Shown piece after piece: positions 27,824 to 33,198 of a stretch of 64,000 bases of DNA (its first letter is position 1; each line of letters begins with the position of its first letter). Source of the DNA: Escherichia phage FFH2; the sequence record KJ190158. One strand, written 5' to 3'. The notes under the pieces were generated by a model. The model saw nothing but the letters and a program-made list of their open reading frames with translations. It was not told the origin of the DNA and did no database searches. The position numbers and the translations under genes were made by a program.

Positions 27824-28156
27824 ATGGGTATACCGATCACTGTAAAAGAATTGAATGAACGTGATGCAGGTGGTCTATGGCCTGCACGAAAAATACGCTG
27901 CATCCGTATGAAAGAGAACCTTGAGCATCTTGAGCAACAGAAACGGATTGAGGTTGGCGATATTTTCGAAGTATTTTATTCTGATCGCCGTAACTGGGAA
28001 ACCATTCAACCTTCCGGTTTTGTTCTTGCTAAGCTTGACACTGGAGAAGTGATTGTTCCTGGGTTGGATATTGTCTTCGAAATTATACAGGAGTGGGATC
28101 CGGACAAGATTAGATACGAAGAGCTATTCGGTGAAGGTATTATCAAACCTGTGTGA
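27824..28156 (+). CDS. hypothetical protein
   Basis: ATG with tggaggagat RBS. Confidence 0.45.
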   Translation: MGIPITVKELNERDAGGLWPARKIRCIRMKENLEHLEQQKRIEVGDIFEVFYSDRRNWETIQPSGFVLAKLDTGEVIVPGLDIVFEIIQEWDPDKIRYEELFGEGIIKPV

Positions 28157-28164
28157 GGTGGATT

Positions 28165-28464
28165 ATGTCTACAAAGGCGGCTAAATACTCCTATATGCCA
28201 TCAACCTCTGCAGAGGTAGACTTTAGTTTCGATGTGTTTCCACTGTTTGAGGTGGTTCTGGCATACCCAACAATACTATCTACTCCTGAATCACTTGTGC
28301 CTGTTAAGTTGCAGAACGCTATGCATTACATGCACTACAACAACAAATGTAGGCACAGATGGTGTCAGGACGAGGAAAAAGATTTGGATAGTTTGAGAGA
28401 TTTTGACAGTCACCTTTTGACACCTTTCAGCTACTCCAACCTTGATAAGCCCTCGTGGGTATAG
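28165..28464 (+). CDS. hypothetical protein
   Basis: ATG with gaggtggatt RBS. Confidence 0.4.
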   Translation: MSTKAAKYSYMPSTSAEVDFSFDVFPLFEVVLAYPTILSTPESLVPVKLQNAMHYMHYNNKCRHRWCQDEEKDLDSLRDFDSHLLTPFSYSNLDKPSWV

Positions 28465-28488
28465 CAAAATATCAAATTTAAGACACCT

Positions 28489-28516
28489 AGGACGCTCTGT
28501 GGCGTCCTTTTCTTTA
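28489..28516 (+). terminator. rho-independent terminator
   Basis: aggacgctctgtggcgtcct followed by tttctttat. Confidence 0.65.
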
Positions 28517-28824
28517 TCTGGTGCACGATTGCATACCTTGGGTAGTTAATCTCATTACAGAGCGTTTAAGAGCTCCCTACAAACAACTCCATATTTCGAG
28601 CGTAGCGAGAACGCACGTCCGTTTTGACCCAAATCACCATACGCTCGGATTTTAACCAAACCCTCGCGGCGTTTCTGTGGACACATTACCGATCCAGTGA
28701 TAGTATCCACACATAGTTTGTAGAATATGGAGTACACAATGAGAACATTGTCCGAAGTTTTAGTGGTGATCCTGATGATCATTACGTCCATAGCGGCTGT
28801 TGCCGGAATACTCACGGGTGGAAC

Positions 28825-29037
28825 ATGATCAACACACATGCATCTGAAGAGACATCCGAAGGAGTTACCATCTGTCCCTTGGCTGAGCCAGTGAAAGAGG
28901 AAAACTTCGATTCTGAAGATTATCCATCTCCGTCCCAGGTAGATCCTGAGGCTGATGACCTAACGTGGGAAGACATCGTAGATATCTGGTTCTCTATTAT
29001 GCCTGAGCACGAAGAGTTCAGGGGTGGTAGACTATGA
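28825..29037 (+). CDS. hypothetical acidic protein
   Basis: ORF. Preceded by a 29-aa hydrophobic peptide ORF (28738-28827) and a TGGACA-17-TAGTAT promoter-like site (28677-28705). Confidence 0.4.
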   Translation: MINTHASEETSEGVTICPLAEPVKEENFDSEDYPSPSQVDPEADDLTWEDIVDIWFSIMPEHEEFRGGRL

Positions 29038-29156
29038 AGCACCGAGCCCACACAGGTTCCTCATACTAAAGCATGGCCTGAAGAGGCAAACGTGCATAAT
29101 TCCTGCGCATTTGGACGTATAATCCTGTTCACACTCTCATTTCCAGAGGAGATTTT

Positions 29157-29372
29157 ATGAAGATAGAAATATTTGGTGGAGCTGACAACACTCGTGGCCT
29201 GATTTACCTTGAATTTGATGAATCATACCTGCCAGAGGTGTTAAATATAGACTCTGTTGCTGAGGCTTTGGGAGTAAACCCTAAAGAACTCCACTCTTGT
29301 GCTGAGATCGATGGTTGGGAAGAGACCATGAACATTGATTTCAGTGAAGTAGAGGATGAACCGCTGGACTGA
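29157..29372 (+). CDS. small acidic protein (MKIEIFGG..., family-like)
   Basis: gaggagatttt RBS. Last + strand gene before the ORF-free region. Confidence 0.4.
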   Translation: MKIEIFGGADNTRGLIYLEFDESYLPEVLNIDSVAEALGVNPKELHSCAEIDGWEETMNIDFSEVEDEPLD

Positions 29373-30823
29373 CACACAATTAGCTGCCCGGCTAAAGTGC
29401 TGGAAGCACCTATAACACATCTTTCAACTAAATTTCCTACCACCACAATCACTTACCTCCCACACATGACTGTTTGCTTGTTTAGTGAGCAGTCATGCCT
29501 TGACATTCTTGCCTATCCTGATAAAATTAAGTTCTTCTCTTTTCTTTTACCGAGTAATTCGGGTTTTCTGTTCTCTTCGGTTTGAAGGGGTATAGAGATA
29601 CACCTGAGTGAACAGGGTGAACAACCGAACATTTGGCTATGGCATTAGCATGGCGAAGCGGACGGGTGACGAAAGAGGGGCCGGAGGACACCAGTCACTG
29701 CCATATGATATATGGGTGATAACCTGAAGAGTCTGAATAAGTGTTTAAGTACCAGTCAGAGGAAAAGGTGAATGGTAGCCGAAGGGGGAGGGGGGTTTCT
29801 TGTATCTTTAATTTGTATATTATGTATACACTTGTAAACCAATCTCATCTGAATTTGTTTACCACACAAAGTGGATAGGGACAAATATTACCTATTAAAC
29901 TTGAATTATTTATAGAAATACCACAACACCACTTAAGTCTTTGATTTTACACACAAATCCTACAGATATTCACCCTCCATATTTAACATACCTGTAACAT
30001 ATTCCATACCCTACCTGACCGATCAATTCACCCAACTACATCCCCATATTTTCCCTGTCTGTACTACCCCTGCCCCGCCGGGAGTCCCGTCATATCTGGC
30101 TTTCCAGCAAATATCACACCCACAAATATCATTGCCTGAAGAGGGTTTCATCCCATAATACATGCCTTACCTGAAGAGCGCTTCATACACCACGTAAATT
30201 TTTTAATTGACCCCCTCCCCGCCGCCGGAGAGGTTGGCTTTTCCCACACAGACCTGAAGAGTCAGCCAGAAATATCTGAACAGGTCCAGCTATGCCACGA
30301 TTTTGTGCTTGTCCTACAGGAGTGCCTCCCTGTCAGGAGCCGGTAGCGACTGGAGTGCTGCCAGGCGGACGAAATGGGAATCATTCTCATTCTTATAACA
30401 ATTCTCAAATATCGAGGCAGTGAGGCAAATTAATAGGTGAGGCCGTTCACACAATGGCACAACATTTGCAACCTATCTTGTGGGAGTGAATGAGAATACC
30501 TATCATTGTGAGAATAGTTATCATTACGGGCAATTTAACATAATACCCATTATGCGCACCACTGGCGATCCATACAGGGATTGATAACATGGGTTACTGT
30601 TTACACACATAACAATTATATTTCTTACTATTTGTGTGGGATATAGTTAGCAGCCGATAGATTAGATATTGACCTGTAGACTTCCAACCGTCCAGACGTC
30701 TAAACGCCCACACAACAAGGGTTATACATACACAACTGAATGTAAACAGGGCCGCAAAAATGCTACCATACAAGCTTGTAAATTTTTCATGCAGCACTTG
30801 ACAAAGAGGAGGAAAACTTGTCT

Positions 30824-30894
30824 GACACTTTAGACACAATAGTGACATAATATGACATAATGGTGACACTGAACATAATTGACATGCCTGACTG
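30824..30894. repeat. helically phased array of TGACA pentamers (about 8 copies at ~10-11 bp spacing)
   Basis: TGACA/AGACA at 30824, 30833, 30844, 30854, 30865, 30881, 30890 (plus 30800) in an ORF-free region. Confidence 0.6.
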
Positions 30895-30928
30895 TTTACA
30901 TAGCTAACTATTCATACAGAAATGATAA

Positions 30929-31161
30929 GCCATGCCATTCGTTTGCATGATAATAATTAACTTGTTTACAATAGATGACATAATATAAAAGCAGGGCAAC
31001 TATTAGAAGATCTATAGTTGCCTTGCTTGTTATGTCATGATTAACTAAATACAAGGCAACTATGATCTGATTAATAGTTTGCAGACAAACTATCACGGGG
31101 GTGATGGTTACTGCTTTTATATTATGTCGCGACTCCGTCGCGCCATGCCATTCGTTTGCAT
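30929..31161. repeat. nested repeat structure: 20-bp direct repeats flanking 18-bp inverted repeats that enclose caactat inverted iterons
   Basis: gccatgccattcgtttgcat occurs at 30929-48 and 31142-61; gacataatataaaagcag at 30977-94 pairs with ctgcttttatattatgtc at 31111-28; ggcaactat..atagttgcc at 30995-31022. Confidence 0.6.
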
Positions 31162-31774
31162 AGTTGCCTTATTGTTACAGATAAAATAATTGTATTGTTA
31201 ATTATTTCTTATCTTTCTCTTAGTCATCTAATGATTCCAGTCAGTATAGTAATGTACAGTAAACATTAGACGACTAAAGATTTCTCTGTTTATTATAACT
31301 TACCGTGACAATTTCAGGCTGTTTACGAAAAATGTTGACACCTGGGCCGATTTATGTTATGCAGTTTACACGAATAATTATTTTATGCAGGTATTGACTA
31401 TTCCGTTATTCTATGGTTGGAATAAATACTTAGCAGACTATAGAATGGTGAGCGTACGTAAATTCTGAGATCTGGCGGCTATAGTTATACTCGATTTTTC
31501 ACGTAGAACACGCTTTTGTTAGTGTGTAAGTGTATGACTTATAAAGATTTTTAGTTGTTGACAAGATATTGAAGATGTGCATCAGGTTAAATTTTGTGCA
31601 ATAGCGGCATTACGTGCAATTTTGAGAGAGAAAACGGGTAAAAATGGCCTTGCTATCACACAATGAAAAATTATGCAATAGTTATTTTACATGTATGTTT
31701 GTACAGTGTGTGGGATTGATGGCTAGTCAATTATTCCACTTGCCAGGCTGGGCCGTTTGTGGTAGGAGAAATAC

Positions 31775-31808
31775 AGACAAAAAGAAAGGGGCCTTTTAAA
31801 GCCCCTGA
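31775..31808 (-). terminator. rho-independent terminator ending the leftward early cluster
   Basis: On the - strand: aggggctttaaaaggcccct followed by ttctttttgtc. Confidence 0.65.
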
Positions 31809-31824
31809 TAGTTTAGTTAAGAAA

Positions 31825-32244
31825 TTATAATGATTCGTATATTTCATAGATTCGATTTGCCAGGTCGTTACGGTAGCGGAATTTTTCCTCACGTTTGATC
31901 ATCAGATCTTTAAAGCCATATTCTTTAAGCACTTCATTAACTTTATGGCGGCATACCTTCATATTATCCTGTGCGTCACCAATAAACCTGTTGCTATGGT
32001 GCATGGCTTTAATTTCTTCTTCCAGGACCAGAGCAACTATGCGGACCGGATCAAGCTGATAGGCGGTAACATCCATGCGGCATTGTAAACGACTTTTTAC
32101 GTCTGCCACCGGATATACTGCAACCTCTTCCCCGTCAACATTGACAATAATTAGTTTACCATCGATTTCGAATCCTTTCGCCGCCGGACCGTGACAAAAA
32201 GCGTTATCAAAGCTATATGCCGGATTATTAGATTTAATGTTCAT
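31825..32244 (-). CDS. hypothetical protein (139 aa)
   Basis: ORF; own promoter at 32294-32322 (TTGACA-17-TATATT, - strand). Confidence 0.5.
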   Translation of the reverse strand: MNIKSNNPAYSFDNAFCHGPAAKGFEIDGKLIIVNVDGEEVAVYPVADVKSRLQCRMDVTAYQLDPVRIVALVLEEEIKAMHHSNRFIGDAQDNMKVCRHKVNEVLKEYGFKDLMIKREEKFRYRNDLANRIYEIYESL

Positions 32245-32293
32245 GGTGTTTTTACCTCTTAGTTAATTTTCTTACAACTTCCCTTCAAAAAAG

Positions 32294-32322
32294 AATATAG
32301 CAAAACTGCCGATCCTTGTCAA
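32294..32322 (-). promoter_or_regulatory. sigma70 promoter (TTGACA-17-TATATT)
   Basis: The -35 lies inside the palindrome atccttgtcaaccaaggat. Confidence 0.55.
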
Positions 32323-32390
32323 CCAAGGATAGCATAATTTTTATGTGATCAAGGGGCTTTATTGCCCCCCTGATCGTGCAACTTGTTGTA

Positions 32391-32654
32391 TTATTTGTTG
32401 CTCATCCAGTTTTCCCAAGCTGCCTGATAATCTGCCTCACTGCGGCGGATCTCTTCTTGTTCTTCAAGCCGGATCTCTTCTTCCAGGTACCCCAGGATAT
32501 CGGCTTTTTTGGTCTGGCGTAACATCCAATCATCTTTTTTACGAGTAAAGATCTTATAAGCTTTCTCGCAAACCTCTTTTTTGCTACCTTTTTGGACTTC
32601 AAGAACACGATAAGCCATATATTGAACTAGTTTGAGCTGGTCAAGACGTTTCAT
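32391..32654 (-). CDS. hypothetical basic protein (87 aa)
   Basis: ORF; upstream hairpin gggccttttggccc. Confidence 0.45.
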   Translation of the reverse strand: MKRLDQLKLVQYMAYRVLEVQKGSKKEVCEKAYKIFTRKKDDWMLRQTKKADILGYLEEEIRLEEQEEIRRSEADYQAAWENWMSNK

Positions 32655-32714
32655 AGTGTTTTCCTCTTTGTGCGGTTCTGATTAGTGGGCCTTTTGGCCC
32701 GTGTCATTATCTTA

Positions 32715-32987
32715 TTACTTATGGCGGCAGAATTCAAGCGTTTTTAATTGATAATCTTCCTCAGCCTGGAGTACTACCGCCTCGATCATTTCGTTGGCAT
32801 TGTTAAAGCCATAACCTTTAGCGAACTCATCCGCGCCACCTTCGTGATCATGTTCTGCGTTCATCGCTTCCACAAAATGGAATTCCAAATTGTTGAGGTA
32901 GGGGCTTGATGTTCCGTCCTCTTTTTCGATGAGATCCCAGATAGCATTAAAACGTGATTCGACTTCTTGATTAATCCAGCTTGACAT
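32715..32987 (-). CDS. hypothetical acidic protein (90 aa)
   Basis: ORF; promoter TTGACA-17-TAACAT at 33042-33070 and 5' hairpin gggcacttttgccc. Confidence 0.45.
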   Translation of the reverse strand: MSSWINQEVESRFNAIWDLIEKEDGTSSPYLNNLEFHFVEAMNAEHDHEGGADEFAKGYGFNNANEMIEAVVLQAEEDYQLKTLEFCRHK

Positions 32988-33198
32988 AATGTTTTCCTCT
33001 CTTCTGGTTGTTGTGTGGGCACTTTTGCCCCTTCAAGATAAATGTTACCCCACCCCCTGGCAGATGTCAACGGTTTTTATAGTTCTTATATGACAGGCAG
33101 GCCCGGTGATTGTCTCCCCCCGTCGCCAGGTGCCTGCCGTTGAATAAGTATAACAAAAAACAGGACCATTGCAAGCCCTGTTTTCTAGTCAATAAGGA

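Follow-up and report, generated by a model that had tools for sequence, protein, structure and literature searches.

What is a tight cluster of TGACA pentamers doing in a 2.45-kb ORF-free gap between the converging genes of a coliphage? The cluster lies in a stretch of 64,000 nucleotides of Escherichia phage FFH2 (sequence record KJ190158), hereafter the window, where genes run on the + strand over 1-29372 and on the - strand from 31825 onward, so that transcription converges on the region of the array. The 2.8 kb surrounding the array matched 163 phage records at 80-99% identity, almost all of them Vequintavirus, and rV5 itself is about 95% identical over this distance; the window is thus identified as Vequintavirus, an rV5-like E. 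coli myophage (a 137-kb myovirus). About 18-20 records of near-identical rV5-like coliphages are named 'Campylobacter phage' (UNVERIFIED). In the genome paper of rV5 the same gap appears as a grey box, 'non-coding', with no function assigned. Public records carry no annotation on the array, the sole repeat_region annotated near it being a TGAGAAT tandem in phages navn and naswa, and a literature search found no paper on this TGACA array.

The initial annotation had described about eight TGACA or AGACA copies, spaced 9-11 bp apart and all on one face of the helix, as a site for the cooperative binding of an initiator, a partition protein or the small subunit of terminase. The existence of the cluster is confirmed, with six exact TGACA and one AGACA in 82 bp, which makes TGACA the densest cluster of all pentamers within the 64-kb window. 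TGACA occurs 93 times in the 64 kb (1.45 per kb), and no other 100-bp window holds more than 3 copies. When 300 first-order Markov simulations of the window were run, the maximum was 2-4 TGACA per 100-bp window as against the 6 observed, and none of the 300 exceeded 4; the cluster therefore lies far above chance expectation. Seven of the proposed copies match, whereas the eighth reads TGACT, and the positions given for them were those of the G of each copy, one base past its start (Table 1).

The regularity of the array is narrower than had been described. Successive spacings from the copy at 30799 to that at 30889 are 24, 9, 11, 10, 11, 16 and 9 bp, so that the 9-11 bp spacing belongs to the five central copies (30823-30868), the others being 24 and 16 bp apart. 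At 10.5 bp per turn these five core copies fall within about 50 degrees of one another, whereas the copies at 30799, 30880 and 30889 stand at 257, 154 and 103 degrees; a common helix face is thus a property of the core only. Tandem Repeats Finder reports an 11-bp unit in 3.4 copies over 30833-30868, and the consensus of the unit is TGACAYAnTnG.

Table 1. Features at and around the TGACA array, in positions of the 64,000-nucleotide window (^ marks a boundary of the direct terminal repeat, DTR).
Feature	Position	Strand	Remarks
Hypervariable left DTR flank	30304-30363	+	1-2 copies of a GGAGYGCTGCC module, the last abutting the boundary (...GGAGTGCTGCCA^GGCGGACG)
DTR, 459 bp	30364-30822		Single copy, in concatemer-junction form; placed by homology to relatives' record ends
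TGAGAAT boxes in DTR	30383-30389, 30401-30407	-	
TGAGAAT boxes in DTR	30491-30497, 30509-30515	+	
TGACA inside DTR	30799-30803	+	In invariant TTGACA, 24 bp upstream of the array; polypurine AAAGAGGAGGAAAA then follows
Invariant junction block GGAAAACTTGTC^TGACA	30811-30827	+	Spans the DTR right boundary, 30822/30823
TGACA, exact copies	Starts 30799, 30823, 30843, 30853, 30864, 30880	+	
AGACA copy	Start 30832	+	
Core array, five phased units	30823-30879	+	TGACActtt, AGACAcaatag, TGACAtaata, TGACAtaatgg, TGACActgaacataat
Distal TGACA	30880-30884	+	16 bp from the core, out of phase, within block AATTGACATGCCTGACTGTTTAC
TGACT	30889-30893	+	Copy '30890' of the initial annotation; neither TGACA nor AGACA
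Second variable-copy array, TTYACR-type units of 13-16 bp	30893-30916	+	Two units here: TGTTTACA, CTATTCATA

Two mechanical open reading frames that run across the array (30594-30869 on the - strand and 30669-30833 on the + strand) were rejected as genes, because relatives differ here by unit indels of 9, 10 and 11 bp. An Rfam scan of 28000-33000 returned no family except a chance-level match at 31772, and a tRNA scan of the non-coding box returned none. When the neighbouring ORFs were compared with PHROGs, only families of unknown function were matched, with no DNA-binding candidate and no initiator or Par family among them.

The position of the array was elucidated from the ends of related records. 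Several close relatives have public records that start about 197 bp before the search query, and this prompted inspection of the record ends. In the record of EdH4 (MK327930) the first and the last 459 bp are an exact repeat, GGCGGACG...AAACTTGTC, and ECP2309 (PP464953), deposited by a different group, carries at both of its record ends an exact 459-bp repeat whose ends are identical to those of EdH4; BLAST places the ends of the repeat at 30364 and 30822 of the window. A terminal redundancy of 458 bp has been reported for EdH4, with HdK5 (Korf 2019). In Pr121LW the record is a one-copy permutation, and its opening point falls exactly where ...CTTGTC gives way to TGACA.... The right end thus agrees in three separately deposited genomes (EdH4, ECP2309 and Pr121LW), although these records are maybe not fully independent determinations, and in the window the boundary is placed by homology to them. 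The first base past the right boundary, 30823, is the start of the array. By this homology the non-coding box is the seat of the physical chromosome ends, and the window represents the single-copy, concatemer-junction form. The Vequintavirus reference records (NC_011041 and others, rV5 included) mostly start elsewhere than at a physical end and are without the second copy of the DTR.

The junction was then compared among relatives, where 29 junctions gave 25 distinct arrays, the first alignment comprising 20 distinct sequences; IMG/VR pattern scans for further junctions yielded only 2 loci, then 1 locus. The sequence AAAACTTGTC^TGACA is unchanged in 24 of the 25 distinct relatives, the exception being phage inoa with TAACA as its first pentamer. 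In the 20 aligned sequences, positions -12 to +5 (GRAAAACTTGTC^TGACA) are identical throughout except for an A/G site at -11, and divergence is sharp from +6 onward. The DTR is 90-100% identical among 18 relatives, while in the conservation profile no DNA of the region varies more than the stretches directly on either side of it: identity is about 0.5 with gaps of 0.3-0.4 on the left (30304-30344), and 0.42-0.71 with up to 25% gaps on the right (30824-30920), conservation being resumed from 30924. Selection is therefore evident at the junction, in that the block from -12 to +5 is invariant and variation begins at +6, with a conserved DTR between variable flanks. The mapped end is also the centre of a 4+1+4 palindrome, TGTC-T-GACA (30819-27).

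Some further features of the two boundaries may be recorded here. The left flank is an indel hot spot, in which three relatives carry a hairpin insert, and an RGTGCT motif stands 1-4 nt before the left boundary, as it does in KPP-1 and Mt1B1_P17. The polypurine run AAAGAGGAGGAAAA (30803-30816) ends 6 nt before the right boundary; it resembles a Shine-Dalgarno sequence, with no conserved ORF after it, and KPP-1, Mt1B1_P17 and BME3 each have a comparable run ahead of their right boundary.

In every relative examined the array is present, with at least one copy in 25 of 25 arrays and at least two contiguous copies in 20 of 25. The contiguous GACA run ranges from 1 to 6 copies, a single copy being left in 5 of the 25 arrays, and the 5 copies of the window stand near the top of this range. 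Among the 52 spacings within runs, 9, 10 and 11 bp occur 17, 18 and 17 times (mean 10.0), and the phasing score R is 0.58-0.69 in three arrays. Since a spacing of 9 bp is as common as one of 10 or 11, strict phasing on one face is not conserved among relatives. Information content within the units is 1.26 bits at T position 1 and 1.02 at Y position 6, as compared to 0.3-0.6 at most spacer positions; GACA itself served as the search key. The core of the repeat is thus kept while the spacers drift, the 9-11 bp spacing being held over 25 arrays.

These observations fit best with a functional short-repeat array at the edge of the DTR, which reiterates the motif of the cut site and serves the formation of genome ends by terminase, a reading to which we give about an even chance. 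The linear genome packaged would be bounded by the 459-bp DTR, while replicating concatemers would carry one copy of the repeat per junction. The right genome end would be cut at ...AAAACTTGTC^TGACA..., and the first TGACA would be one half of the end-forming site, because the cut falls in the centre of TGTC-T-GACA. The 1-6 units that follow would be copies of this half-site in the same orientation, about one helical turn apart, and would offer putative docking or positioning sites to the terminase holoenzyme, whose small subunit is an oligomer able to contact successive turns on one face of the DNA. During duplication of the terminal repeat, the extra sites may help the enzyme to be placed at the right boundary or to halt there. 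Replication slippage would add and remove units, and copy number would drift as a result. That a protein binds here, that the binder is terminase and that the copies beyond the first are relevant are all points that we infer. Among the binders proposed initially, position favours terminase, which must cut at the mapped right end of the DTR, directly beside the array; the array adjoins the cleavage position mapped by homology between 30822 and 30823, as do the repeats of cosB- and pac-type sites.

An extension of the terminase reading, which we hold to be doubtful, is that reiterated cut-site motifs at the DTR edge are a general, convergent device of DTR phages, with TGACA in Vequintavirus, CAACAAATAG in BME3 and CCTAAAG in T7, and that the array acts as a protein-loaded roadblock or ruler at which the translocating motor halts and cuts. 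Each unit would then be a potential stop or cut register of terminase. If so, each gain or loss of units would move the right end, or spread it into a ladder, by increments of about 10 bp, which would tune the length of the repeat and the efficiency of packaging.

Variation in the array also bears on a simpler possibility, namely that only the TGACA at the junction is functional, as the cut site, and that the other units are a neutral minisatellite made by slippage in the recombination- or repair-prone DNA beside the DTR. Contiguous copy number varies from 1 to 6, unit types are shuffled between phages, and a single TGACAtaata unit is the whole difference between two relatives (L031 and L033); in phages such as C15 and FV3 the inner units have decayed to RRCAY, both flanks of the DTR are indel hot spots, and KPP-1 and Mt1B1_P17 are without an array. 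Against this, the 9-11 bp spacing is kept in 25 arrays, with the T and the Y beside GACA better conserved than the spacers, and the unrelated DTR phages T7 and BME3 keep reiterated motifs at the equivalent place. In addition, the GACATAAT form of the unit recurs outside the array, at the conserved positions 30977 and 31121. We consider the neutral origin of the extra units possible, though on the unlikely side, and the comparative data are equally compatible with a role for the first copy alone and a neutral remainder. From the same comparisons, a multi-copy cooperative site cannot be essential, because some relatives keep a single copy and two related DTR phages have no array. Copies beyond the first are likewise not needed for DTR packaging in general, because KPP-1 and Mt1B1_P17 make DTRs without an array after the boundary. 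The extra TGACA copies may therefore be dispensable.

The resemblance of TGACA to a -35 hexamer, and of TGACATAAT to an extended -10 element, raises the question whether the array is instead a cluster of sigma-70 promoters for rightward transcription that would run from the left end of the genome into the non-coding region. Two pairs can be drawn in the window, CTGACA-18-CATAAT (with TG) at 30822-30851 and ATGACA-16-CATAAT at 30852-30879. However, such sites are not enriched in the 2.6-kb region (13 found versus 9.2 +/- 3.2 expected), no -35/-10 pair exists in the array region of 7 of 20 relatives, and the positions of the pairs differ in the remainder. There is no coding sequence downstream on the + strand, and the rV5 authors annotated no promoter in the region. 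A promoter cluster is accordingly judged improbable.

The first two binders of the initial annotation amount to reading the array as the iterons of a replication origin or as a partition site, with an initiator or a ParB-like protein as the binder. Such sites generally look as the array does, with phased direct repeats in a large stretch of non-coding DNA, and GC skew changes sign here. The cumulative GC skew, however, is at its maximum, as is expected of a terminus, where an origin would show a minimum, and the flanking genes are transcribed toward the array instead of diverging from it. DnaA boxes (TTWTNCACA) are not enriched in the 64 kb (7 versus 8.4 expected), one of them lying in the non-coding box and none within 800 bp of the array. 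The units of 9-11 bp are shorter than the 17-22 bp of iterons, the single-strand fold of the array is no better than that of shuffled sequence (z = +0.86), and the site coincides with the genome ends. An initiator is thus disfavoured by the skew, the DnaA boxes and the size of the units, and partition finds no support in the neighbouring ORFs, in view of their PHROGs matches; an origin or partition site is, in our judgement, very unlikely.

A second array, with units of the ACTGTTTACA or TTGTTCACG type, follows the TGACA array; rV5 has about 7 of its units where the window has 2, and a copy related to its TTYACR units lies inside the DTR at 30587-30617. By eye its TTTACA/TTCAC units resemble DnaA boxes, an assignment that was rejected as TTWTNCACA is not enriched and the skew is terminus-like.

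The terminase reading has to be weighed along with another motif within the repeat. Of the 13 copies of TGAGAAT in the window, 4 lie inside the 459-bp DTR, where an 18-bp tandem, TGAGAATAnnTATCATTG, is repeated 1.9 times at 30491-30525. The sequence ATGAGAAT(A/G)ATTAT(C/T)ATT is the sole motif conserved inside the DTRs of all three lineages, KPP-1, Mt1B1_P17 and BME3 included, and the TGAGAAT box resembles the 7-1-7 palindrome of the Fur box with 2-3 mismatches. The TGAGAAT box is a candidate for binding by a conserved protein, which may be terminase or the Fur protein of the host. It is better conserved than TGACA and an equally good or better candidate recognition site, and could itself be the site of the small terminase subunit.

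Other conserved elements were recorded on either side of the DTR. To its right, a near-invariant and strongly self-complementary element at 30977-31128, located 155 bp inside the left genome end, is flanked by the two copies of a perfect 20-bp direct repeat, GCCATGCCATTCGTTTGCAT (30929 and 31142). Folded as DNA, the element gives -51 kcal/mol (z = -7.8); its base is formed by a perfect inverted repeat of 18 bp, in which the array unit is present in its GACATAAT form, and relatives have optional GC-hairpin insertions in it. It may be a cruciform or a ncRNA. To the left of the DTR, in 29600-30300, repeated CCTGAAGAG motifs (29722, 30169 and 30252), a 20-nt repeat pair (30132/30167) and two CCCCGCCG(G) GC-rich stems (30066 and 30210) are conserved in relatives. 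The 139-aa protein that adjoins the non-coding box (31825-32244, - strand) is rV5 gp159. The Phapecoctavirus genomes, of another subfamily and differing in size by roughly 15 kb, have a homologue with about 90% identity to it, which there too adjoins the genome end; this suggests a conserved or exchanged end-proximal module.

Among coliphages, those of the rV5 type are common choices for therapy and as models, and some belong to the BASEL collection. Placing the genome ends in the non-coding box turns it into a set of concrete cis elements in a tractable E. coli system, namely the palindromic junction, the TGACA array and the TGAGAAT boxes. The correct linearisation of rV5-like genomes follows from the mapped ends, and the formation of DTR ends is made testable in a tractable group of coliphages.

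The closest comparisons are with other rV5-like lineages. In KPP-1, a Klebsiella Mydovirus, PhageTerm maps a T7-type DTR of 514 bp whose left boundary (...GTGCTA^GACGGAC) and right boundary (CTTGACAAGGAGAGAGAATTGTGTT^) both lie on homologous motifs, and its CTTGACAAGGAGAGAGAA is homologous to the TTGACA region inside the DTR; unlike the window, it has no array after the boundary. Mt1B1_P17 belongs to a distant rV5-like subfamily, Stephanstirmvirinae; its DTR is exact, 328 bp long and ends ...AAGAGAAGATGCT^CAACATAT..., with a single copy of the motif at the boundary and no array. BME3 (Justusliebigvirus, Stephanstirmvirinae) has a 342-bp DTR ending ...AAGAAAGTAGGCT^CAACAAATAG..., and was used as a comparator once Mt1B1_P17, from a sister genus, had corroborated the same boundary. 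As in the window, its right-boundary motif is reiterated, CAACAAATAG being repeated four times, always in the same orientation, in the unique DNA just past the boundary, but the motif is another one and the spacing is irregular (22, 23 and 10 bp). In the BME3 record (PP239276), bases 332-788 are repeated at 146500-146956 besides the 342-bp terminal repeat, and the annotated 'DTR-L' (146957-147298) matches neither repeat; this odd right end is probably an artefact of assembly or annotation. All three rV5-like lineages have in common a polypurine run 4-7 nt before the right cut and an RGTGCT motif 1-4 nt before the left cut. As read from these boundaries, each lineage has a motif of its own starting at the right boundary, reiterated in Vequintavirus and BME3 and not in KPP-1 and Mt1B1_P17.

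Reiterated sites beside a packaging cut are familiar from other phages. In lambda cosB, the R3, R2 and R1 sites for gpNu1 lie beside the nick site cosN and are bound by the small terminase subunit so as to position the nuclease. The present array resembles cosB in that a short motif is reiterated right next to the terminase cut (placed here by homology) and on one side only. It differs in that lambda has 12-nt cohesive ends and no DTR, and its R sites are 16 bp long, only three in number and of mixed orientation with an IHF bend between them, whereas binding to the present units is putative. The P1 pac site, with its TGATCA/G hexamers, and the pacL and pacR boxes of SPP1 are recognised by pacase or the small terminase. 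There too reiterated motifs of 6-7 bp flank the region of packaging cleavage, but packaging is headful, with imprecise cuts and permuted genomes; in P1 the hexamers stand on both sides of the cut and are under the control of Dam methylation, whereas the present array is without GATC.

Comparison with T7 concerns architecture only, as the CCTAAAG motif of T7 and TGACAYAnTnG have no sequence similarity. T7-type phages carry one copy of the repeat per concatemer junction, terminase cuts precisely and the second copy is synthesised, by steps whose details are poorly understood. When the T7 ends were read directly, about 12 heptamers of the CCTAAAG type were found at 175-345, every 12-13 bp, after the 160-bp repeat, and similar heptamers precede the right-hand copy of the terminal repeat. 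These arrays, which Dunn and Studier are said to have named SRL and SRR in 1983, are not known to have a proven function, and the present array, if dispensable, would bear on this old question. In T7, a podovirus where the present phage is a 137-kb myovirus, the period is 12-13 bp instead of 9-11 bp and the array leaves a gap of about 15 bp after the boundary, whereas here the first unit stands at the boundary itself. The T7 motif also occurs on both sides of the repeat and inside it, whereas the left flank here has GGAGYGCTGCC and no TGACA run. What the two have in common, by homology in the case of the window, is an exact short DTR bordered on its inner side by short repeats in the same orientation, and they would fall in the same packaging class, in which concatemers have one repeat copy per junction. 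Short repeats at DTR edges, like reiterated terminase sites beside cut sites, are thus already known as kinds, and it is with these that the TGACA array of the rV5-like phages can be compared.
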